From Pseudanabaena sp. M085S1SP2A07QC (GTDB lineage: Bacteria; Cyanobacteriota; Cyanobacteriia; Pseudanabaenales; Pseudanabaenaceae): DNA of 64,000 nucleotides. This document shows positions 2,576 to 57,950 of this stretch, piece after piece. The notes below the pieces were generated by a model. It made no database searches. It saw only the letters and a list, made by a program, of their open reading frames with translations, and was not told the origin of the DNA. The position numbers and the translations under genes were made by a program. The stretch lies in the NCBI GenBank assembly GCA_020404895.1, contig JADBWK010000004.1:109506-173505 (forward strand), given 5' to 3'. Within the stretch, counting starts at the first letter, position 1. Every line of letters begins with the position of its first letter.

Positions 2576-4021
2576 ATGACTGACATGACTGCAACGGTTC
2601 AAGCACTTGTCAACCAACCATACAAATACGGATTTGTTACGTCTATTGAGTCGGACACGATTCCTCGTGGTCTGAGCGAAGATGTCGTCCGCATGATTTC
2701 GGCTAAAAAAAATGAGCCAGAATACATGTTGGAATTTCGGCTCAAGGCTTATCGTCAATGGTTAAAGATGCAAGAACCAACATGGGCGCATGTCGAATAT
2801 CCTGCGATCGATTACCAAAATATCGTTTATTATTCTGCACCCAAGCAATCGAAAAAGAAAGCAAGTCTTGATGAAGTTGATCCTGAATTACTAGATACTT
2901 TTGAGAAATTAGGGATTTCCATTAACGAGCAAAAGCGTCTGACCAATGTTGCCGTTGATGTCATTTTTGATAGCGTTTCGATCGCTACAACTTTTAAGAA
3001 AGATCTAGCCAAAGTTGGTGTAATCTTCTGCTCGATCACCGAAGCGATGCATGAATATCCTGAACTGATCAAAAAATATCTAGGTAGCGTTGTCCCGATC
3101 GCAGACAACTACTATTCAGCACTAAATGCTGCCGTATTTACCGATGGCTCCTTTGTATACATTCCCAAAGGCGTAAAGTGCCCGATGGATCTGTCTACCT
3201 ATTTCCGCATTAATAATGGCGATTCTGGACAGTTCGAGCGTACTTTGATTGTTGCTGAAGAAGGAGCCTATGTCAGCTATCTTGAAGGCTGTACAGCACC
3301 AATGTTTGATACCAATCAACTTCATGCAGCCGTAGTTGAATTAGTCGCCCTAGATGATGCCGAAATCAAATATTCCACAGTACAGAACTGGTTTGCTGGC
3401 GATAAAGATGGCAAAGGCGGTATCTATAACTTTGTGACTAAGCGTGGTTTGTGCCAAGGCAAAAACTCAAAGATCTCTTGGACTCAAGTAGAAACAGGTT
3501 CCGCAATTACTTGGAAGTATCCTAGTTGTGTATTGGTTGGTGAAAACTCCGTTGGCGAGTTTTACTCTGTTGCTCTAACAAATAATAAGCAACAGGCTGA
3601 TACTGGCTCAAAAATGGTGCATATCGGCAAAAATACCCGCAGCAAAATCGTTTCTAAAGGCATTTCCGCAGGTGGCTCCCAAAATAGCTATCGCGGCTTG
3701 GTGAAGATCTCACCCAAAGCTGAAGGCGCAAGAAATTATTCTCAATGCGACTCAATGCTGATTGGTGATTGCTCGCAGGCAAATACTTTCCCTTATATCC
3801 AAGTCCAAAACAATACCGCTAGAGTTGAGCATGAAGCCTCAACTTCTAAAATCGGCGAAGAGCAATTGTTCTATTTTCAACAACGCGGTATCGCAGTTGA
3901 AGATGCTGTCTCAATGATCATTAGTGGCTTCTGCAAAGAAGTATTTAATGCATTGCCGATGGAGTTTGCTGTTGAAGCTGATAAGCTCTTGGCTTTGAAG
4001 CTAGAGAATAGTGTTGGCTAG
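2576..4021 (+). CDS. sufB: Fe-S cluster assembly protein SufB
   Basis: 481 aa, full-length SufB-like sequence ([37 protein letters not shown]). RBS aggag lies 5' of the ATG. Confidence 0.97.
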
Positions 4022-4097
4022 ATTTGAAATATTTTGAGGGCAAAGCACTCACTGGAATTACCATATAACTATTATGGGATTCTTGATGATTATGTAG

Positions 4098-4379
4098 GTG
4101 ATGGATATGGCAGTTAAATTCATTCTTAGTGATTATGTCGAGGAAGCTCTAAAACAAGCAACCTATGACAAGTTAGACGATAACTCGTTTGTTGGACGCA
4201 TTCCAAGTTGTCAAGGGGTAATAGCATTTGGAGAAACACTTCGCGAATGTGAATATGAGGTGCAGTCGGTCTTTGAAGACTGGGTTCTTTTAGGATTAAG
4301 GCTAGGACATCACCTGCCAATCATTGGCGGGATCGATCTAAATCAGGAGCTAAAAAGTGAGTCGATTAGCGCCATGTAA
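4098..4379 (+). CDS. hicB: HicB-family antitoxin-like protein (UPF0150 fold)
   Basis: About 90 aa with the pattern FVGRIPSCQGVIAFGETLRECEYEV..EDW, typical of short HicB antitoxins. The start could be ATG 4101 or 4107. It overlaps the next ORF. Confidence 0.65.
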   Translation: MMDMAVKFILSDYVEEALKQATYDKLDDNSFVGRIPSCQGVIAFGETLRECEYEVQSVFEDWVLLGLRLGHHLPIIGGIDLNQELKSESISAM

Positions 4380-5438: not shown

Positions 5439-6823
5439 TGGCTATTCAAGTTTCTGAACAAGTGGAAAATCAAGCAGAACTAAAGGGCGCATTAAGCACT
5501 CGCAGTAAATTGGCTGTTGACAGCAAAAAATTTACTTCCCAAGTGATCAGTTTGGGTTCTGCGATCGCGATCGCTCAAGACACCGATCAGTTTGTGAGCG
5601 AGATTCGTCAATTGGCTAGCGATCGCCTAGCGAGTCTTTCTTTCCCAACCACCAAAGATGAAGAATGGAAATATACTGATGTTTCGTCTTTGGGAAATCT
5701 AACTTTTGCTAATCAACTGGCTAAGTCAGAGGATGTCGAAGCATTAATTGCTAAACATTCGGCTTCTGAAGCATCAGGTAACCTTATTGTGTTTGTGAAT
5801 GGCCAGTATAGCCAGAAGTTCTCAGATACAACGGGTGCAGTACAAGGTTTAGTTATTGGCACATTGGCAACTCTTGGCGATCGCATTCTACCCAAGCTGC
5901 GATCGCACCTCGCTCAGCATCCCGATGCGAATGATTATTTTACGAGTCTGAATACAGCTTGTATGAAAGATGTGGCGATCGTGCTTGCCCCAAAAAATCT
6001 TGTCGTCGAAAACCCAATCCAGCTTTTGTTTGTATCTGCACCACAGGCTGGCGCAACATTGATAACTCAGCCGCGCTGTTTGGTGATTGCAGAAAGCCAT
6101 AGTAATTTGACTTTTATTCAAACTTTTGTGGGAATTGATTCTCAAACCTATTTTACTAATACGGTAACAGAAGTTTGGCTTGCCGAAGGTGCAGAGGTTA
6201 ATCATACTAAGGTGCAGTGGCAAGGTGATGAGGCAGTGCATATCAATACGACTGCGATCGCTCAAGCTCGAAATAGTGTCTATAAAAATCAATCTATTAG
6301 CATCGGTGCGAAGATCTCTCGCCAGAATTTGATCGTGCATCAAATGGCTGAACAAACGCAAACTTCGCTGACTGGGTTAGCATTTGTCGATGGTGAACAG
6401 CACGCGGATACACATTCTGTAATCGCCCACAACTATCCGTACGGATCGAGTAAGCAATTGCACAAGTGCATAGCTGACGGTCGTTCCCATACAGTTTTTA
6501 ATGGCAAAATCCAAGTTGCGAAGTTAGCTCAACAGACTGATTCCGCCCAGCTAAGCCGCAATCTCTTGTTGTCTCCCAAAGCGCGAGTGGACACTAAACC
6601 CCAATTAGAGATTTTTGCAGATAATGTCAAATGCGCTCACGGCGCGACTGTCAGTCAACTAGATGCTGAGGAAATCTTCTATCTCCAAAGTCGGGCGATT
6701 GATGATGAGAGTGCTGCTAACTTGCTAACCTATGCTTTTGCAACCGAGGCGATCAACCAAATTCCGATTGTTTCGGTACAGCGATCGCTTAGTAATTTTG
6801 TGCTTGAAAAAACGAAGGGTTAA
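5438..6823 (+). CDS. sufD: Fe-S cluster assembly protein SufD
   Basis: 461 aa. C-terminal beta-helix region is homologous to SufB (KCAHGATVSQLDAEEIFYLQSR). ATGA coupling to sufC. Confidence 0.93.
   Translation: MAIQVSEQVENQAELKGALSTRSKLAVDSKKFTSQVISLGSAIAIAQDTDQFVSEIRQLASDRLASLSFPTTKDEEWKYTDVSSLGNLTFANQLAKSEDVEALIAKHSASEASGNLIVFVNGQYSQKFSDTTGAVQGLVIGTLATLGDRILPKLRSHLAQHPDANDYFTSLNTACMKDVAIVLAPKNLVVENPIQLLFVSAPQAGATLITQPRCLVIAESHSNLTFIQTFVGIDSQTYFTNTVTEVWLAEGAEVNHTKVQWQGDEAVHINTTAIAQARNSVYKNQSISIGAKISRQNLIVHQMAEQTQTSLTGLAFVDGEQHADTHSVIAHNYPYGSSKQLHKCIADGRSHTVFNGKIQVAKLAQQTDSAQLSRNLLLSPKARVDTKPQLEIFADNVKCAHGATVSQLDAEEIFYLQSRAIDDESAANLLTYAFATEAINQIPIVSVQRSLSNFVLEKTKG
6774..6823 (+). repeat. Left copy of a ~50-nt direct repeat (the functional sufD 3' end)
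   Basis: It re-occurs at 8984-9033 with about 8 substitutions by hand alignment. Confidence 0.85.
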
Positions 6824-6963: not shown

Positions 6964-8262
6964 ATGCTAAAGAGTTTGCGTTTAGAAAATTTTAAAAGTT
7001 TTAAAAATGCCGAGCTTTCGCTTGGAGATTTGACAGTTTTAGTCGGGACAAATGCTTCAGGCAAGAGTAATATTCGCGATGCATTTCGTTTTTTGCATGG
7101 TATTTCGCGAGGTTATAGTATTGCTGAAATTATTGGCGAGAAATATGGGGAAGGTGGTGTACTGCAATGGCGAGGCATACGTGGTGGGACAAAGGAAATA
7201 ACTTATTGTGGGGCTGATTCTTTTGCGATCGCTATTTCTTTTTCCGTCCAAGATGGTGATACAGAATATGAGATGGATTACCGCATTGAGATAAGGCTTA
7301 CCGCTTTTAGTCCAGTACCGATTGTTGTTGCAGAGAACCTCCATTGTAGACAGAAAAAACACGCAATTTTTGACACAGTCGCTAGAGTTCATTTACAAAA
7401 TACTATTGCTGTTCGTTTTTATGATTATTACGAAATTGATGAAGTTAATGGAAGTGCTCTTGATCCATATCAATTTTTCCAAAACTATATTCCCATTCTT
7501 TTTTTAGCAGCGAGTGGAGTTAAACCCCATATTCAGAAGCTTGACAAAGAAAATTACAAAATACCAGTTGCAAGAAAATTTTGTGAACTAGCTTTAAATG
7601 CCATAAGTGACATGAGGTTCTTAGAGCTTAGTCCAGATTTGATGAGACTTCCAACTTTCTCAGGACAAAATATTTTAGGCGATCGCGGGGAAAATTTGTC
7701 ATCGGTGATGTTAGATATCTGTCGTGATGAAACTCGTAAGGCGATTTTATTGGATTGGTTGCAATCTTTAACGCCAATGGATGCAAAAGATTTTGATTTT
7801 CCCGAAGACTTCACTGGCAAAGTTCTACTTAGAATCGAAGAAGCAAGTGGTCAGAAAACAACCGCTTATAGTGCATCGGATGGAACATTACGATTTTTAG
7901 GATTGTTGGCAGCACTTTTGGGTAATCAGCGATCGCGCTTTTACTTTTTTGAAGAACCTGAAAATGGCATTCATCCTAATCGGTTAAGCTTGCTGTTGCA
8001 GCTTATGCAGCAAGAAGTCGCCAATAGCTCGATGCAAATTGTGATTACTACTCACTCACCGCTTTTGTTGAATTTCTTAAGCCCCGAAAGCCTCGAATAT
8101 GCTTCTTTAATGTATCGAATCGGCGATCGCAGCGAGTCACGCATAACCAAAATTATGGACATTCCCAACGCTAGGGAACTTGTTGTCAATGAAGGCTTAT
8201 CGAGCTTACTAGATTCAGGATGGCTAGAAGATGCGATGTATAGCAATGTAAGCTTTGCTTAG
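6964..8262 (+). CDS. AAA_15/AAA_21-type ABC (SMC/RecF-like) ATPase, OLD/PARIS-AriA/AbiL-like; its C-terminus has been remodelled by a MITE
   Basis: N-terminus MLKSLRLENFKSFK. Walker A GTNASGKS, signature-like SDGTLRFLGLL, Walker B FYFFEEPENGIHP, H-loop ITTHSP. The track start is TTG at 6952, and ATG at 6964 is the more likely start. The last 7 codons and the stop lie inside the MITE at 8239-8346. Confidence 0.85.
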   Translation: MLKSLRLENFKSFKNAELSLGDLTVLVGTNASGKSNIRDAFRFLHGISRGYSIAEIIGEKYGEGGVLQWRGIRGGTKEITYCGADSFAIAISFSVQDGDTEYEMDYRIEIRLTAFSPVPIVVAENLHCRQKKHAIFDTVARVHLQNTIAVRFYDYYEIDEVNGSALDPYQFFQNYIPILFLAASGVKPHIQKLDKENYKIPVARKFCELALNAISDMRFLELSPDLMRLPTFSGQNILGDRGENLSSVMLDICRDETRKAILLDWLQSLTPMDAKDFDFPEDFTGKVLLRIEEASGQKTTAYSASDGTLRFLGLLAALLGNQRSRFYFFEEPENGIHPNRLSLLLQLMQQEVANSSMQIVITTHSPLLLNFLSPESLEYASLMYRIGDRSESRITKIMDIPNARELVVNEGLSSLLDSGWLEDAMYSNVSFA

Positions 8263-8346
8263 GACATAAAACCCAAAAGATGGCAGAGCGAAGCTCTGCC
8301 ATCTTTTGGGTTTTGAATTGTCCTATCTATCTCTTACGTTGCTATA
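8239..8346. mobile_element. 108-bp MITE, copy 1 (TIR TATAGCAATGTAAG / CTTACGTTGCTATA, internal 20-bp-stem hairpin)
   Basis: Near-identical copies at 49742-49849 and 54001-54108. The outer TA dinucleotides are compatible with a TA target duplication. Confidence 0.9.
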
Positions 8347-22510: not shown

Positions 22511-25500
22511 ATGTCTAATGCGAAAACTATTTTGATAGTGAATAATGATGAAAGTGATCGCTTACTTTGTCGTAACTATATAGAATGTGATCCTGAAAAT
22601 AGCTATCGTATTTTAGAAGCTGAAACTCTTAAGCAAGGATTGGAATTATGGCGATCGCAAACCCCTGATGTGACATTGGTTGACATCGGTTTGCCTGATG
22701 GCAATAGCCTAGTCTTAGTCGAGACTATTCGTGCTGACATTCAAAGTAAGGCAAGTAAACAGGTATTAGATCTCAAACTTCCAGTAATTATGTTTATAGG
22801 AAGTGAAGACGCAAGAAATGCAGTGAGCACAATGAGTTTGGGAGCATATGACTATTTGATTAAAGATGGTATTACCAAATATTCATTACAACGGAGTATC
22901 TGTAGCTTACTTGAATACATTAGCTTAAACCGCCAACTAGAGCAGTCTTGCAGACGGGAAGAGCTAGTTTCTCAAGTCGCTCTAAATACTCGTCAGTTTA
23001 TTAATCTAGAAGATATTTGTCAGACTGTGGTTCAAGAAATTAGTAAATTTCTCCAAACTGATCGCACGCTTATTTATAAATTTGATGAGGATATGAGCCG
23101 CAGAATTATTGCTGAGGAAGTAGTTCCGTCTTTTTCTTCTTGTTTAGGTTTTGGGTCTGATGCTCTCTGTCCCCATCTTTCCGAGGAACAGATGAATGCC
23201 TATTTAGATTGTCAGATTTCTGCTAATGCAGATATACATAGTGCTGGTTTTGCAGAATGTCATGTACAGATGTTGGAGGGCTTTCAGGTTAAAGCAAATG
23301 TGGTTGTACCAATTCTATTAGCTGAATCTCTAAGTAATAATTCAGTTTCTAATAATCAGCCAAATAATCGCCAGAACAATCAAACTTTATGGGGATTACT
23401 GATTGTTCATCAATGTTCGGCAACTCGTGATTGGGATGAACATGAAATTAAGTTGCTTAAGCAATTATCGGTGCAATTAGCGATCGCAATTCAACAAGCT
23501 GAAATCCATCAGGAACTTCAAAACTTGAATGATTCTTTAACGATACAAGTCCAAAATAAGACATCCGCACTTCAAGCTAGTGAGCATAAGTTGCGTTCAA
23601 TATTAAATGGGATTCCAGACATTATCAATTTAATCAGTATAGATGGCACTTATCTTGAATCTAAACAGGATAAACCTTCTTATGACTTCATTCCCGATCA
23701 TACTCATTCGATCGGGAAGAAGATTGTAGATCTCCTGCCATTAACACTTGCGACAAATCAACTTCAGACAATTCAGCAGGCTGTCTCTTCTGGGGAAATA
23801 TTAACTATCGATCAAACTTATCAGGCTAGTGACGGGGGACACTATGAGGAAGTTCGAGTAATCCCAATAGACAATAACGCTGCTGTTGTAGTTGTCCGTG
23901 ATATTAGCAATCACCGTCGCGCTGAAATTGCCTTATTTGCAAGTGAGGAGAAACTCAAAAAAGTAGCACTGTCATCTCCAGTGATAATCGAGATTTTTGT
24001 GCAACGCACAAATGGTTCTGCATATTTTGAATATTTAAGTCCCGCTTTTGAGGAGATTTATGAGTTAAAAGTTGCCCAAGTCATGCAAAATCCTCAACTT
24101 TGTTTTGAGCAGATTCATCCTGATGATGTAGCGAATGTATGGGAAGCTGTTGGCATTAGTCTTGAGACATTATCAATCTTGCAGCACGAATGGCGAGTCA
24201 TTACCCCATCTGGCAAGATTAAATGGCTATGTACTAATCTCCGTCCAGAGTGGCGAAAAAATGGAGATACGGCTTGGTATGGAACTGTCTCAGATATCAG
24301 TGATCGCAAACAGATAGAAATCACTCTTGAGAAACAATTAATCTACAATAAAACACTTTTGACTAATTCTTTTGATGGAATTGTGATCATTGATAGTTTG
24401 GGGAATTTTGTTGAGTGTAATTCAAGTTTCGCCGAGATGCTTGGTTATTCTCTAGAAGAAATACCTAATCTCAGTATTTATGATATTGATGTGAGATGGA
24501 CAAAAGAAGAATTAGATAAGGGAATTCAAGAATTTAACCTTCGGCGAAAAAAAGTCCAGTTTGAAACTCAACATCGTAAAAAAGATGGATCGATCTGTGA
24601 TGTTGAGATTAGCGCCAATTCTGTCGATTGGGATAATAATATTTTACAATTTTGCATTTGCCGAGATATTACAAAACGCAAACTCGCTGAACAATCATTA
24701 GAGAAAGATAAAGAACTAGCCGAATCTGCCAATAAAGCTAAGAGTGAATTTCTTGCCAATATGAGCCATGAAATCCGTACGCCAATGAATGGAGTTCTTG
24801 GCATGGCGCAACTGCTATCTACTACACCCTTGAATGAAGACCAAAAGGATTTTGTAAAGGTTATCTTAGATAGTGGGGATGCGTTATTAACGGTAATTAA
24901 TGACATTCTAGACTTCTCAAAAATTGAATCTGGAAATCTCCAGCTAGAGCAAAAAGAATTTAATTTTGAAGATACGCTCAATGCAGTTTGTAATCTCTTA
25001 AATAAACAGGCTTCTGACAAAAACATTAATCTGCAATGTCACGTTAATAGCATAAACCCCACTACAGTCGTAGGCGATAGCTCACGACTGAGACAAATCC
25101 TGATTAACCTAATTGGTAATGCAATTAAGTTTACTAATCAAGGCTATATCTCCATTAGCTATAACCGTAAATTTATTGCAGCTAACACCTACGAATTTAG
25201 GTTCTCGATCGCAGATACAGGGATTGGCATCAATTGCAATAGCATCCATAAACTGTTTAAGCCTTTTACTCAAGCTGATGCCTCGATCAATCGTCAGTTT
25301 GGAGGGACTGGGCTAGGATTGGCAATCTCCAAACGACTTGTAGAAATCATGGGTGGAACAATCTGGGTGGAAAGTCGAGGTAAAGTCGGTGGCTATCCTC
25401 CATCAGATTGGGTAATCAGATCTAACGATAATACTGGCTCCACTTTCTATTTCACAGTCATCTTACCTGTAATTGCGATACCCCCCACTATCACCACTAA

Positions 25501-25948
25501 TAAATCTGGTTCTTTTTTACCTGATAATAATAAAATTAGTTTTGAGCAGTTTCCTATTAAAATCTTGATTGTTGAAGATACTATTCTCAATCAAAGAATA
25601 ATTGTCCTAATGCTCCAAAAACTAGGCTGTCAAGCCGATGTAGTTAACGATGGCAGTAAATGTGTAGCGATTTTTTCTAATCAAGATTCTCAGGCTACCT
25701 ATGATATCATATTCATGGATGTGCAGATGCCTGTTATGGATGGACTAACTGCAACTAGAGCAATTCGTCAAAGTTCATTACTAACACAGCCTTGGATTAT
25801 TGCCCTCACTGCTGATGCTATGCCAGAAGATTATAAAGCCTGTATGAATGCGGGAATGAATGACTATATGTGTAAACCAATCAATATAAAAGATGTTGAG
25901 CGATCGCTATTAAAATACATCAAAGTCAATAACGTACGATCACTGTAA
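22511..25948 (+). CDS. Hybrid sensor histidine kinase (REC-GAF-PAS x3-HisKA-HATPase_c-REC)
   Basis: N-terminal receiver and a GAF region. H-box [11 protein letters not shown]-box LIGNAIKFT, G-boxes DTGIGI and GGTGLGLAISK. C-terminal receiver IFMDVQMPVMDG..CKP. Confidence 0.93.
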   Translation: MSNAKTILIVNNDESDRLLCRNYIECDPENSYRILEAETLKQGLELWRSQTPDVTLVDIGLPDGNSLVLVETIRADIQSKASKQVLDLKLPVIMFIGSEDARNAVSTMSLGAYDYLIKDGITKYSLQRSICSLLEYISLNRQLEQSCRREELVSQVALNTRQFINLEDICQTVVQEISKFLQTDRTLIYKFDEDMSRRIIAEEVVPSFSSCLGFGSDALCPHLSEEQMNAYLDCQISANADIHSAGFAECHVQMLEGFQVKANVVVPILLAESLSNNSVSNNQPNNRQNNQTLWGLLIVHQCSATRDWDEHEIKLLKQLSVQLAIAIQQAEIHQELQNLNDSLTIQVQNKTSALQASEHKLRSILNGIPDIINLISIDGTYLESKQDKPSYDFIPDHTHSIGKKIVDLLPLTLATNQLQTIQQAVSSGEILTIDQTYQASDGGHYEEVRVIPIDNNAAVVVVRDISNHRRAEIALFASEEKLKKVALSSPVIIEIFVQRTNGSAYFEYLSPAFEEIYELKVAQVMQNPQLCFEQIHPDDVANVWEAVGISLETLSILQHEWRVITPSGKIKWLCTNLRPEWRKNGDTAWYGTVSDISDRKQIEITLEKQLIYNKTLLTNSFDGIVIIDSLGNFVECNSSFAEMLGYSLEEIPNLSIYDIDVRWTKEELDKGIQEFNLRRKKVQFETQHRKKDGSICDVEISANSVDWDNNILQFCICRDITKRKLAEQSLEKDKELAESANKAKSEFLANMSHEIRTPMNGVLGMAQLLSTTPLNEDQKDFVKVILDSGDALLTVINDILDFSKIESGNLQLEQKEFNFEDTLNAVCNLLNKQASDKNINLQCHVNSINPTTVVGDSSRLRQILINLIGNAIKFTNQGYISISYNRKFIAANTYEFRFSIADTGIGINCNSIHKLFKPFTQADASINRQFGGTGLGLAISKRLVEIMGGTIWVESRGKVGGYPPSDWVIRSNDNTGSTFYFTVILPVIAIPPTITTNKSGSFLPDNNKISFEQFPIKILIVEDTILNQRIIVLMLQKLGCQADVVNDGSKCVAIFSNQDSQATYDIIFMDVQMPVMDGLTATRAIRQSSLLTQPWIIALTADAMPEDYKACMNAGMNDYMCKPINIKDVERSLLKYIKVNNVRSL

Positions 25949-49741: not shown

Positions 49742-49849
49742 TATAGCAATGTAAGCTTTGCTTAGGACATAAAACCCAAAAGATGGCAGAGCGAAGCTCT
49801 GCCATCTTTTGGGTTTTGAATTGTCCTATCTATCTCTTACGTTGCTATA
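49742..49849. mobile_element. 108-bp MITE, copy 2
   Basis: By eye identical to copy 1 (8239-8346). It lies 93 nt upstream of the Rieske gene start. Confidence 0.9.
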
Positions 49850-52780: not shown

Positions 52781-53392
52781 TTAAGAAGTAGAGCCTATGG
52801 TAATTTCGTTGCTAAAGCTTGTCTTTTTCACAAACTGGAAGGCTCCTGCGATCGAGCCCCAGACCCTTTCATCGGTTACGATGTCATAGCCACGATCAAG
52901 GCTGCTATATGTATTTTCCGTAACTTCAAACTCAATTGCAAGATAGGTATCGACACCTTTACGATTAATGCAACATTTTTTTCCTGGCTCGACTGCCCCT
53001 TTAAATGTTTGCTGATCAGTGCGATCTACCCATTGAGTACAGCCCTGTAGCTGCTCGATCGCATTGATATCCAGCACTTTAAGCCGATCAAGATCTCGAC
53101 TAGCCCCAAAAAACGTTTCCGCATTTTTGAGACGATAGTTGATCATTTCAATGCGATCATTTTGAAAAATCAGATGTAAAACTGCGGTGCGATAAGGATG
53201 ATTTAGCTCATAGTCGTATGCTTGTTCAAGAAAGAGCCATACGCCATCGTCAGTAATGGGATTTGGTAATGCGCGAATGCCAACGCGAATATGGGCAAAA
53301 AATGGCGGATTATCGATCGCTTGTTCCCAATTACTATGATCGCCTGCGAGCCATTGAGCAAGCGTATACACATCGCTAGGGTTTGTAGTCAT
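52781..53392 (-). CDS. cpcT: CpcT/CpeT-family bilin lyase
   Basis: LAQWLAGDHSNWEQAIDNPPFFAHIRV and FLEQAYDYELNHPYR match the CpcT/CpeT pattern. Confidence 0.85.
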   Translation of the reverse strand: MTTNPSDVYTLAQWLAGDHSNWEQAIDNPPFFAHIRVGIRALPNPITDDGVWLFLEQAYDYELNHPYRTAVLHLIFQNDRIEMINYRLKNAETFFGASRDLDRLKVLDINAIEQLQGCTQWVDRTDQQTFKGAVEPGKKCCINRKGVDTYLAIEFEVTENTYSSLDRGYDIVTDERVWGSIAGAFQFVKKTSFSNEITIGSTS

Positions 53393-53553
53393 GAGTTGTT
53401 AAAATTTACTTTTTTTATTAGACATTAAAAATTTGAAGATGCAAAGATTGCGATCCTCTACTTTTTTGGGATCCACTATTAAATATAAACCTAGCGACAA
53501 AAATCCAAAACGCCCGCTGCGCAGGTATTATGATTTTGGCTCTAGGTTTATAT

Positions 53554-53976
53554 TTATGCTGAGTTACTTATTACTGAAATTACCTGCATAATTTCTGTAA
53601 TGTTAATCGGTTTACTAATGTAATCATTCATACCTGCATCAAAACAAGCTTGGCGATCTTCGGGCATCACATCAGCAGTCATGGCAACAATCGGCACTTG
53701 GCTCATTAATTCATTGCGAATAATCTTTGTGGCTGTTATGCCATCCATTGTTGGCATTTGCAAATCCATCAGGATTAGATCGTAGGTATTATTTTGTAAA
53801 GCCTGCAATACCTCTAATCCGTTGTTAGCAATATCACTAGTCTGATAACCAAGTTTTTTGAGTATCGAACTAGCAACCATTTGATTAACTTTATCGTCTT
53901 CCACTATGAGAATCTTTAAAGGGAATTTTTCGGCAAATTGTCTGCTGATCGCAGTTTTTTTATTGTGAGTTCCCAA
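53554..53976 (-). CDS. Receiver (REC) domain, the detached C-terminal module of the broken hybrid kinase upstream
   Basis: KILIVEDDKVNQ, LILMDLQMPTMDG and SKP. The only in-frame start is TTG. The frame stays open upstream, through a linker, to the MITE. Confidence 0.7.
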   Translation of the reverse strand: MGTHNKKTAISRQFAEKFPLKILIVEDDKVNQMVASSILKKLGYQTSDIANNGLEVLQALQNNTYDLILMDLQMPTMDGITATKIIRNELMSQVPIVAMTADVMPEDRQACFDAGMNDYISKPINITEIMQVISVISNSA

Positions 53977-54000
53977 AGGCTGATAGATCGTTTGACTAGT

Positions 54001-54108
54001 TATAGCAATGTAAGCTTTGCTTAGGACATAAAACCCAAAAGATGGCAGAGCTTCGCTCTGCCATCTTTTGTGTTTTGAATTGTCCTATCTATCTCTTACG
54101 TTGCTATA
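54001..54108. mobile_element. 108-bp MITE, copy 3 (central loop inverted: gagcTTCgctc versus gagcGAAgctc)
   Basis: Same TIRs as copies 1 and 2, plus one g-to-t change in the right stem arm. It sits exactly where a HATPase_c domain should be encoded. Confidence 0.9.
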
Positions 54109-54119
54109 AGACCACAATC

Positions 54120-55283
54120 TCAAAGTAAAATTACGATAGGAATATCAGGCGAGATCATATATTGGAGATCAATTTGCTTAGCGATCGCTTGACTATTTAG
54201 CAGTTGAGTGACTCCACTAACAACATCTTCCAACTTGAAATCCCATGTTTCTATTTCTAACATGCCTGATTCAATTTTAGAGAAGTCAAGAATATCGTTG
54301 ATAATGGTTAAAAGAGATTCACTACTATCCTGAATTGTTTTCACAAAATCTGCTTGTTCTTCGGTAAGAGAAGTAGTTTCCAGTAGTTGTGTCATTCCCA
54401 TCATGCCATTCATTGGCGTGCGGATTTCATGGCTTATATTTGCTAAAAATGCACTTTTCGCTCTAGTAGCTTCTTCAGCACTTGTTTTCGCTTGTTCTAG
54501 AGCGCTTTCTGCTTGCTTACGGACAGTGATATCCACTACTCGCGCTAGACTATACTGTTGTTCTCCAAAAGTAATTCTCTTAAGAGAAAGATCCCCCCAA
54601 AATTCGCGTCCTTTGCGAGTGAGATATTCTACCTCGATGCTACAAAAAACATTTTGGTTAACTTCTTGGTCAATCTGGGCGAGTTCTTGCCTAGTAAACT
54701 GGCGTTTGTGGAGAGTGCGCCCTTCAATATTAAGTAGATCATTTTTATCTTCAACTTCAAATAGTTTTATAGCTTGCTGATTGCAGTCTATTATGAGTGA
54801 AGTCTTACTATCGACTAAGAACATTGCATCAGTAGACTCATTAAATATTAATTCTCGTAAATCACGACTATGGGTTAACTCTATTTCTAATCGTTTGCGA
54901 TCGCTAATATCAGTAATTGTACCAATCAGTCTCACTACTTTTCCTTGGTCGTCACAAATCGCCTCACCTCGGCTGATTACATGACAGATTGAGCGATCAG
55001 GACGAATGATGCCATGTTCCACCATGTAAGGTGTACCATGGGCGATCGCTTCTTCTACGGCTGCACGAATATTTGGTTGGTCAACTAGAGGGACAATATC
55101 AAAGAAGTTGGCATATTTGGGTAATGGCACATTTGGATCAAATCCCAGAATAAGGAATTGCTGATCTGACCAAGTACTAACTCCACTCGCTACATCAAAT
55201 TCCCAGCTACCGATCCTTGCAATACGTTGAGCTTCAGTAAGATCTGTTGTTTTTTTAGCAACATAGAATCGTGCGATAAACAT
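54120..55283 (-). pseudogene. Truncated sensor kinase (PAS-PAS-HisKA) lacking the HATPase_c domain
   Basis: The H-box [10 protein letters not shown] is present. The ORF stops at ..QYMISPDIPIVILL*, the position where the paralog at 22511-25948 continues with VVGDSSRLRQILINLIGNAIKFT. Confidence 0.75.
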
Positions 55284-55387
55284 TCTTCTGAATTTCTGAC
55301 ATAAAGTCAGCTTCAGGGATCGCTATTACAAAAAGCCAGTCTAAGCCGTAATACAGAAATATAGTTTTTTACAGTAGCGTTTTGTTT

Positions 55388-56620
55388 TTATCTAACTGGT
55401 ATTTGCTCGGCTTCAGGAACTTGTTCAGCTTCCCAATGGCTGAGAATAATTGCATTCACACTGTTACCAATAATATTAATGACGGTTTTAAATCCATCGG
55501 TTAAGCGATCAATGCCTGCGACTAAGGCAATCGCTTCTAATGGCAAACCTGATGCTGATAGCACGGTTGCCATCGTGATCAGTGCTGAGCCTGGCACTCC
55601 AGGGGTACTAAATGAAACCAGTAAACTACTAACAGCGATCGCGGTTAGTAGAGAAGGTGTTAAGGGAACTTGATAGATTTGAGCGACAAATAGAGCGTTA
55701 AATCCTTGCAAAATCGCCGCACCATCACGTTTGAGAGCAGTACCTAGAGGGATCGCGAAACTAGCAATTTCTTCTCGCAAACCATAGTTCTCTTGAATGT
55801 TTTGTAGTACAACTGGCAAGGCGGCATTGGAACTAGCTGTACCAAAGGCTAAAGCGATCGCTTCTGAAAGACTACGCAAAAATCTTATAGGCTCAGCTTT
55901 AAGAATAAACAGGGCTATCATATCTAAGCTAATCATGATCGAAGAAGCAATCACTAAACCCAAAACATAGAGAAATAATTTAGCAACGATTTCTAATCCT
56001 TGAGTAGCGATCGTAGAACTCATCAGGGCAAATACACCCAAAGGCGCAACATACAAAATTACGGATAAAGTTTTTTCGCTAATGTGATAGATACTTTCGA
56101 TTAATTCCACAAAGGGTTTTGCTTTCTCTTTAGCAAGTTGAACGCCTATTCCTAGCAGAACAGCCGAGAAAATGATTTGTAATAGATTGCCAGTGCTAAG
56201 AGCTTCTAATGGGTTTACAGGAATTAGGCTAACGAGCCAAGATATTAAAGATGGTGCTTCAGTAATACTAATATTTTCTGAGATTGTAAAGCCTTTTACT
56301 CCACTTCCAGGCTGTAAGCAATAGGCTGTACCCATACCCACACAAAGAGCGATTGAACTGGTGATCAGGTAGCTAGTCATTAACTTAACTGTATATCTGC
56401 CAACTTGTCCAGCGCCTTGGATTCGCGTCAATCCCATGATTAGCGAAGAAAAAACAATGGGAACGACTACAAACTGAATCAGCCTTAAGAAAGATTCACC
56501 AACTGGAGCTAAAAAGCTTTGATTGATTAGTTCAATATTCTCAGAAAAAGTTGTATTCAATAAAGTTCCAAAAGCAACACCAAATGCTAATGAAATGAGA
56601 ATAAAAGTAGATAGATTCAT
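55388..56620 (-). CDS. Dicarboxylate/amino acid:cation symporter (DAACS, GltP/DctA-like)
   Basis: 410 aa, polytopic. SSNAALPV and GTALKRDGAA hairpin motifs, and a PGVPG motif. Confidence 0.9.
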   Translation of the reverse strand: MNLSTFILISLAFGVAFGTLLNTTFSENIELINQSFLAPVGESFLRLIQFVVVPIVFSSLIMGLTRIQGAGQVGRYTVKLMTSYLITSSIALCVGMGTAYCLQPGSGVKGFTISENISITEAPSLISWLVSLIPVNPLEALSTGNLLQIIFSAVLLGIGVQLAKEKAKPFVELIESIYHISEKTLSVILYVAPLGVFALMSSTIATQGLEIVAKLFLYVLGLVIASSIMISLDMIALFILKAEPIRFLRSLSEAIALAFGTASSNAALPVVLQNIQENYGLREEIASFAIPLGTALKRDGAAILQGFNALFVAQIYQVPLTPSLLTAIAVSSLLVSFSTPGVPGSALITMATVLSASGLPLEAIALVAGIDRLTDGFKTVINIIGNSVNAIILSHWEAEQVPEAEQIPVR

Positions 56621-56871
56621 ATTCTAAATTGCTAATAAAAAAACGCCATAAAAAACTTACAGCCTTATGGATCAAGCTAACTTAGCCAGCCAAAAAAGAA
56701 AGTCCAAAATGAACTACGATCGCAATAAAAATTCAAAATTAGTACCGCTCGCTACGCGGGTAGTACAGATTTTGGCTCTGAATTTTTAATTATGCTGCGG
56801 TACTTAGTGATTGCTATATAATCAAGGCTGCTAGTTTGCCCCTCTTAATATTTAGATACAAACAAGATGCT

Positions 56872-57693
56872 ATGGCGGATCGTTATGTTCGCGTGAAAAC
56901 TTCCCAAGGGAAAGTCTGTTACGGGCTGTTAGAGTTGAATCAATCTATAAAGCTACTCAGTTCAGCACCTTGGCTGGGAGGGGAGCCAAATGGTGAATTA
57001 CTTGCACCAGAAACCTATGAACTTCTAGCTCCCTGTGAGCCAAGCAAGATTGTCGCTGTAGGCAAAAACTATTCGGCACATGCTGCGGAAATGGGTGGAG
57101 AAGTCCCCAGAGAGCCAATTATATTTTTAAAACCTACTACTACGATTATTGCTCCTGAAGCAAAAATAGCCTTGCCGCCACAGTCTAAACGGGTAGAATA
57201 TGAAGGTGAGTTAGCATTGGTGATTGGCTCTCATTGTTTTAATGTCACACCTAATCAAGCGATCGCAGCGATTTGGGGCTATACGATCGCTAACGATGTA
57301 ACTGCAAGGGATTTACAAAGAAGCGATAGTCAATGGACTAGGGGTAAGGGCTTTGATACTTTCTGTCCTTTGGGTCCATGGATTGTGCGCGAAATTAGTC
57401 CTACTGCGATGTTGCAAACTTTTGTAAATGATACTAAAAAGCCTTTTCAGTCAACCTCCATTGAAGAGATGGTATTTTCTCCAGACTATATCGTTTCCTA
57501 CATTAGCCAAATCATGACTTTACTACCAGGAGATATTATTCTCACTGGTACACCTGAAGGTGTGGGGCAAATGCAAGAAGGCGATCGCATTTATATCGAA
57601 ATCGAGGGGATTGGTAAATTGCATAACACGGTAATCCTGCGATCGCCTTTACCGATTGAGCAAGAACCTGAAGAAAGCGAAATTAACGAATAG
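56872..57693 (+). CDS. Fumarylacetoacetate hydrolase (FAH) family protein
   Basis: KIVAVGKNYSAHAAEMG, EYEGELALVIG, NDVTARDLQ, GKGFDTFCPLGPW, and LLPGDIILTGTPEGVG. Confidence 0.9.
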   Translation: MADRYVRVKTSQGKVCYGLLELNQSIKLLSSAPWLGGEPNGELLAPETYELLAPCEPSKIVAVGKNYSAHAAEMGGEVPREPIIFLKPTTTIIAPEAKIALPPQSKRVEYEGELALVIGSHCFNVTPNQAIAAIWGYTIANDVTARDLQRSDSQWTRGKGFDTFCPLGPWIVREISPTAMLQTFVNDTKKPFQSTSIEEMVFSPDYIVSYISQIMTLLPGDIILTGTPEGVGQMQEGDRIYIEIEGIGKLHNTVILRSPLPIEQEPEESEINE

Positions 57694-57950
57694 TAACAGA
57701 GTATTTTACGCTCAATCTCCTATAGAGTTTTTAAAAGTGTTACAGAACAACACTTTTAAAAACTCTATAGGTTTGTTTGATCAAAAATTTTGACGCGACA
57801 AGAAGTTTTGCTTTTTAAATTTTTAGCGGGAACATATGCTGTGAAACTGAGGTCATAAATATTTAGTAAGATCTATAGTTAAAGTCAGGCTCAATGTCAT
57901 AGGCGTAACCACGTAAGAGTCGCAAAATATATCTGGGGGGACGCTTTGAA

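Follow-up and report, generated by a model that had tools for sequence, protein, structure and literature searches.

The locus occupies positions 53554-55387 on the minus strand of the window (the whole stretch of 64,000 nucleotides of Pseudanabaena DNA that was analysed), where it is flanked by an SDF transporter gene upstream and by a CpeT gene, in the same syntenic position as the intact orthologues described below. The window lies on contig C125 of a draft source assembly of 190 contigs and 4.8 Mb, and the database match of this contig is JADBWY010000004.1 of GCA_020403805.1. Between the two flanking genes are found an open reading frame for a PAS-PAS-HisKA protein, a MITE and a reading frame for a receiver (REC) domain, together with shorter stretches that are alignable to the intact genes of related genomes (Table 1).

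Table 1. Features of the kinase locus, listed in the direction of transcription (coordinates are those of the window; Salubria-1 coordinates are those of its contig)
Feature	Position	Strand	Evidence
Remaining 5' portion of the spacer from the SDF transporter stop (55388) to the former kinase start	55351..55387	-	Collinear with UWO311 and Salubria-1 up to 55351
88-bp island, end of the dCache domain (YGLDWLFVIAIPEADFMSEIQKNVYRTIL), between deletions 1 and 2	55263..55350	-	97.7% identical to Salubria-1 4009-4096 and to UWO311
Remnant coding for coiled coil, PAS, PAS and HisKA (DHp)	54129..55262	-	Pfam; nucleotide identity 97.2% to Salubria-1, 90.5% to UWO311
Joint of deletion 3, 3-nt microhomology ATT	54128..54131	-	Junction comparison with Salubria-1 and UWO311
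20 nt left over from the HATPase_c 3' end (TTACTTTGAGATTGTGGTCT; ..YFEIVV in the ancestor)	54109..54128	-	Identical to Salubria-1 5907-5926
108-bp MITE (both TA copies counted), TIRs TAGCAACGTAAG.../...CTTACATTGCTA	54001..54108		Genome-wide copies, DNA fold, empty-site alleles
HATPase-REC linker remnant and complete receiver domain	53554..54000	-	Pfam Response_reg E = 4e-30; ancestral stop kept

The minus-strand frame 54120-55283 had been described from the letters alone as encoding PAS-PAS-HisKA without a catalytic domain, and Pfam agrees: its 387-residue product matches PAS_3, PAS_9 and HisKA (the latter at E = 3e-25, with the phospho-accepting histidine of the H-box intact), and HATPase_c is matched in neither of the two leftover frames. 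The product ends at ..PDIPIVILL*. As the preliminary description had stated and as the alignment confirms, the equivalent point of the paralog at 22511-25948 in the window (REC-GAF-PAS-PAS-PAS-HisKA-HATPase_c-REC, 1145 residues, 41% identical over PAS-HisKA) runs on into the HATPase_c domain. The beginning of the frame is of a different nature. Its opening ATG (55283) lies out of frame inside the 88-bp island of the ancestral gene, and its first seven residues (MFIARFY) are a wrong-frame reading of that island, homologous to nothing in the orthologues; because they are out of frame, homology searches match the 387-residue product only from residue 7 on. This ATG is a chance start. Two further deletions took about 440 N-terminal residues of the ancestral protein, so that the N-terminus of the frame is non-native. 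The frame had earlier been taken to start at its native N-terminus, a reading that does not survive the finding that these two deletions cut away the start codon, the Cache sensor, TM2 and HAMP.

The receiver remnant retains its acidic pocket, phospho-accepting aspartate and conserved lysine in the orthologue alignment, and is 52% identical to the REC domain of the paralog at 22511-25948. Its reading frame runs open from 54084 down to its stop codon at 53554. The earlier observation that a receiver resumes downstream of the MITE with TTG as its only upstream start was correct: the domain is complete, and the sole ATG, GTG or TTG upstream of it is the TTG at 53976, an alternative ATG (53880) lying inside the domain. 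The deposited gene call begins at an internal ATG and comprises only 108 residues, from which strand beta-1 and the acidic pocket are missing. The receiver is not fused in frame to the kinase core, as it lies in another frame and is separated from it by a stop codon, the 20-nt HATPase_c tail and the MITE. In the MITE-free allele of the locus, a GTG start of the REC frame falls 4 nt past the stop of the HisKA frame; the MITE removes this GTG and places a TAG stop in the REC frame.

Intact syntenic orthologues of 1124-1300 residues, with the order dCache-HAMP-PAS-PAS-HisKA-HATPase_c-REC, were identified in six other Pseudanabaena genomes (UWO311, Salubria-1, the Lake ME2015 MAG, OTE_75, lw0831 and L013), in line with the suggestion that orthologues be aligned in search of an intact PAS-HisKA-HATPase-REC gene. 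Over 17 kb, the window aligns collinearly with Pseudanabaena sp. UWO311 at about 90% identity, interrupted only by three gaps and the MITE, and the UWO311 orthologue is one frame of 1124 residues comprising dCache_1, HAMP, two PAS domains, HisKA, HATPase_c (residues 828-948) and REC. The closest relative is Salubria-1, whose orthologue is 97.35% identical to the window at the nucleotide level over shared codons; the L013 orthologue is 58% identical at the amino acid level. HATPase_c is present in six of the six orthologues examined and a HisKA-only architecture in none. The occurrence of full-length orthologues in six genomes shows that the complete hybrid-kinase architecture is ancestral and the state found in the window derived, and that the split arose within the species rather than being ancestral to the genus. 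The proposal that an ATP-binding domain was lost from an ancestrally complete hybrid kinase is thus borne out, as this domain is present in all six orthologues.

We note some variation around these genes. The number of PAS domains differs among the orthologues of the kinase, those of OTE_75 and lw0831 carrying one extra PAS module (about 125-145 residues) between the two PAS domains in frames of 1271 and 1300 residues, respectively, and BL-A-41 carries tandem paralogous copies. The Salubria-1 contig has about 1.5 kb of extra sequence (its positions 268-1792, near window position 56530) close to the SDF transporter gene's 5' end; the window lacks this sequence, which may represent an insertion element of the Salubria-1 genome. 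Further along, 38 of the 42 mismatches over 3.9 kb between the window and two near-identical alleles (contigs L105 and L110, below) fall in a patch of about 280 bp at 57603-57879, formed by the C-terminal tail of an FAA-hydrolase-family gene (56836-57693, plus strand) and the spacer beyond it. This patch contains an imperfect inverted self-match (57719-57771) and may be a local hypervariable or recombined segment.

Comparison of the junctions with Salubria-1 and UWO311 maps three deletions in the kinase gene. Deletion 1, with its joint at 55351|55350, removed 1032 bp relative to Salubria-1 (1038 bp relative to UWO311), that is, the last 24 bp of the 5' leader with the ribosome-binding region, the ATG and 336 codons corresponding to TM1 and almost the whole Cache domain. 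Deletion 2, a frameshifting loss of 245 bp with its joint at 55263|55262, took TM2, HAMP and the beginning of the coiled coil, and beyond it the ancestral frame stops after two codons. The native start and the sensor input of the orthologues are therefore absent from the window copy by virtue of deletions 1 and 2. Deletion 3 spans 431 bp, from the first HATPase_c residues (GDYARLRQIL...) to just before ..YFEIVV; it takes essentially all of HATPase_c, shifts the frame and yields the TGA at 54122-54120. Of 3372 coding bases, the three deletions together took 1684, which is half. A search for repeats or microhomology at all three joints returned only the ATT at joint 3. The preliminary description had spoken of a single lost domain and had missed the two further deletions at 55351|55350 and 55263|55262.

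The element between the two reading frames is short and non-coding, and its ends TATAGCAACGTAAG and CTTACATTGCTATA pair in the fold. Its DNA hairpin has a predicted energy of -35 kcal/mol (z = -9.7), and a scan for terminator-like structures finds a central hairpin with a 16-bp stem (54036-54070) that is terminator-like in both directions. The family to which it belongs is present at 205 loci of the genome. At 156 of these the copy is full length; such copies are mostly 95-99% identical, many at 99%, and all end TATAGCAAC...GTTGCTATA. The family comprises 108-bp copies, which form two identity groups (at about 99% and at about 96% to the copy at 54001-54108), and 116-bp copies at 79-85%. Besides the copy at 54001-54108, the window contains two others (8239-8346 and 49742-49849), and the density of 156 full-length copies in 4.8 Mb corresponds to one per 31 kb. 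The element is a genuine TA-targeting MITE by structural definition, and its earlier identification as a MITE of 108 nt was well founded given the 205 loci, the TIRs and the strong DNA hairpin. The family is a main cause of assembly breaks, because several contigs of the draft begin or end inside a copy. We searched the draft assembly for pairs of TIRs 0.3-4 kb apart as candidates for an autonomous partner, and found no transposase-bearing element among them.

Two other observations concern this family. Outside the window, at positions 28002-28742 of contig C125, 741 bp lie between MITE-like inverted ends (TATAGCAATGCAAG ... CTTGCATTGCTATA) and contain a 136-residue open reading frame with a signal-peptide-like N-terminus and no transposase. 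On contig L103 (GCA_020403765.1), the copy at 4175-4269, whose site corresponds to window 54108-54015, differs from the window copy at two positions, with flanks differing at 3 of about 4170; these differences in the MITE could reflect the mixing of repeat copies in the consensus of a short-read MAG, or real variation.

The relative age of the lesions can be read from alleles that differ by the MITE. Intact relatives read ..GTGGTCT TA ACTAGTC.. in the HATPase-REC linker, where the window reads ..GTGGTCT TA[MITE]TA ACTAGTC..; the target was thus a single TA in this linker, duplicated upon insertion. Four independent contigs, from JGI 3300042946 (L105), Logan SRR27421871 (L107), Ga0068882_1149023 (L109) and Ga0315904_10018653 (L110, 8.4 kb), carry all three deletions together with ..GTGGTCT-TA-ACTAGTC.. 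and no MITE; that of SRR27421871 is 100% identical to the window on both sides of the MITE site. The 20-nt HATPase_c tail, which in the window sits between the deletion-3 joint and the MITE, runs straight into TAACTAGTC in these alleles. The MITE is carried by four other contigs (L103, L104, L106 and L108), and short-read assemblies break inside the element. Since empty-site contigs carry all three deletions, the deletions predate the MITE insertion and are mechanistically independent of it, and the insertion is polymorphic among nearly identical populations. The suggestion to look for strains devoid of the MITE was in this respect fruitful, with four contigs showing an empty site at the locus.

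These alleles bear directly on the reading put forward in the preliminary description, according to which the MITE sits at the deletion joint and has replaced the missing domain. That the element itself caused the loss of HATPase_c, for instance by adjacent deletion or imprecise excision, might be suggested by its position just 20 bp from the joint and by the abundance and recent activity of its family, many copies of which are 99% identical. The joint lies at approximately 54131-54128, however, and the 20 nt of ancestral HATPase_c sequence between it and the element (54128-54109), identical to Salubria-1, indicate that deletion 3 is not anchored at a MITE end. The same joint occurs with an intact single-TA target in the four MITE-free contigs, which severs the proposed tie between element and deletion, and no MITE lies near the other two deletions of the same gene. 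We consider a MITE-mediated deletion very unlikely. Still less probable, to the point of being negligible, is that the missing segments are present in the organism but were lost at repeats, by collapse or omission, when the short reads were assembled. While the draft consists of 190 contigs, several of whose ends are MITE copies, the exact 387-residue product and the same junctions were found on at least 24 contigs from independent assemblies, samples and runs (NCBI, Logan and JGI), repeats are absent from the vicinity of two of the three joints, and the deleted segments are found nowhere else in the assembly, whose remainder matches them only in paralogous HATPase domains at 78% identity or less. 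A search of the source genome for a second copy of the orthologue found none. Assembly collapse between MITE copies is ruled out by the absence of the segments throughout the assembly and by the independent recurrence of identical joints.

The preliminary description had left open whether the outcome is a dead gene or a split into two proteins. Of the two, the dead gene is the better reading and a functional split is unlikely: the locus is very probably a recently inactivated, multi-hit pseudogene of one hybrid kinase gene. The four lesions themselves (the three deletions and the MITE), their polarity and their order are direct observations; from them we infer that the PAS-PAS-HisKA and REC frames are non-functional leftovers, whose intact look would be due to the recency of the decay. 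A functional split would require that the 431-bp frameshift deletion created two working genes, one for a soluble PAS-PAS-HisKA protein that would partner paralogous kinases in phosphotransfer, as a phosphatase or in dominant-negative dimers, and the other for a single-domain response regulator. The preservation of the H-box histidine and of the acidic pocket, aspartate and lysine of the receiver speaks for it, as does the gap of 4 nt between stop and GTG in the MITE-free allele, a layout typical of translational coupling from which the receiver could in principle be translated; the ratio of non-synonymous to synonymous changes (N:S) in the remnants is also indistinguishable, in a test of low power, from that of intact neighbours. 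Against it, the native start, the ribosome-binding region, the sensor, the membrane anchor and HAMP were also lost through the two additional deletions, the frame is opened by a chance, out-of-frame ATG, and the architecture is found in no orthologue among six species. Furthermore, the MITE is tolerated in several assemblies despite the TAG it introduces in the REC frame, its terminator-like hairpin and the TTG left as the only start, and the gene caller yields just a truncated receiver. It would be more improbable again that natural Pseudanabaena populations use the two frames as a pair under translational coupling, the one a soluble PAS-PAS-HisKA protein for phosphotransfer or phosphatase activity and the other a stand-alone receiver, with the hairpin of the polymorphic MITE as a natural switch by which some strains uncouple the expression of the receiver. 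Orthologues in MITE-free genomes with the same organization would have pointed to an ancestral architecture in which the MITE merely landed between two genes; the MITE did land between pre-existing fragments, but the split state was derived in this species and is not ancestral to the genus.

Substitution counts add little to this choice. On the window branch, N:S is 11:15 in the remnants versus 12:23 in the flanking genes in a three-taxon comparison (Fisher p = 0.6) that has almost no power at a dS of about 0.07; with five outgroups it is 6:6, again at low power, and the intact Salubria-1 gene shows 6:8 on its own branch. Alleles from the same species do not differ from one another over the remnant frame. 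Relaxed selection or an excess of non-synonymous change in the remnants was accordingly not detected by counts that have almost no power at this divergence, and the dS of about 0.07 that separates the remnants from their closest intact relative shows only that the decay is recent. No promoter-like site was found on the minus strand in a search of 53300-55700; read-through transcription from the upstream transporter gene into the remnants is possible.

We propose the following course of decay of the kinase gene. The ancestor was a membrane-bound hybrid sensor kinase of about 1124 residues, dCache-TM-HAMP-PAS-PAS-HisKA-HATPase_c-REC. The 1032-bp deletion took the leader together with the start codon and Cache sensor, the 245-bp frameshift deletion TM2 and HAMP, and the 431-bp frameshift deletion the ATP-binding domain. 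Later, the abundant TA-targeting MITE entered the former HATPase-REC linker 20 bp downstream of joint 3 and duplicated the TA; with it came a stop in the REC frame and, between the fragments, a strong hairpin that is terminator-like in both directions. With a full-length copy every 31 kb in this genome, the arrival of a MITE in dispensable DNA is unsurprising.

Ancestrally, the gene was a cyanobacterial hybrid sensor kinase of an ordinary kind. With the orthologues of UWO311, Salubria-1 and lw0831, among others, the window copy shares its syntenic position, 89-97% nucleotide identity in the retained parts, and the PAS-PAS-HisKA and REC domains with their key residues intact, but it differs from them in having no start codon, Cache, TM2, HAMP or HATPase_c, in its two frameshifts and in its interruption by the MITE. 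With no HATPase_c, a receiver out of frame and no native start, it is not expected to function as a hybrid histidine kinase. In bacteria, pseudogenes decay under a deletional bias whereby small and medium deletions build up in inactivated genes. The locus resembles this process in its several independent deletions of 0.2-1 kb, all within one gene whose neighbours are intact and with little microhomology or none at the joints, and in the secondary insertion of a mobile element into the dead gene; it differs in being very young, and its retained parts as yet show no non-synonymous excess. Overall, medium-sized deletions in one inactivated gene and then the insertion of a mobile element make a textbook case of pseudogene decay.

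Phosphotransferases that derive from kinases but have no working ATP-binding domain, such as Spo0B and ChpT, are conserved as such across species. The remnant resembles them in that a receiver adjoins a DHp (HisKA-like) domain that has no functional ATP-binding domain, and differs from them in being the product of a recent frameshifted deletion, in having lost its native N-terminus and in being shared by no orthologue (six examined). The element, for its part, resembles TA-targeting MITEs (Tc1/IS630-type, Stowaway-like) in its size of about 106 bp, its TIRs, its TA duplication, its non-coding nature, its strong hairpin and its more than 150 near-identical copies, and differs from them in that no transposase-bearing partner with these ends was found in the draft assembly. 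MITE families are also present in Microcystis and Nostoc. A literature search returned no paper pairing Pseudanabaena with MITEs, and on the wider subject of histidine kinases, pseudogenes and MITEs in cyanobacteria it yielded nothing but general genome papers. Among cyanobacteria, MITE families have been reported in Anabaena sp. 90.

While the locus raises no new mechanistic question, it has a bearing on annotation in that the genes called as a "PAS/HisKA protein" and a "response regulator" are best annotated as fragments of one pseudogene rather than as a new signalling architecture. It further provides a cleanly dated case of stepwise decay, three deletions and then a MITE, in a bloom-associated cyanobacterial genus, and the MITE family is polymorphic among natural populations that are otherwise nearly the same, a sign of recent or ongoing transposition.
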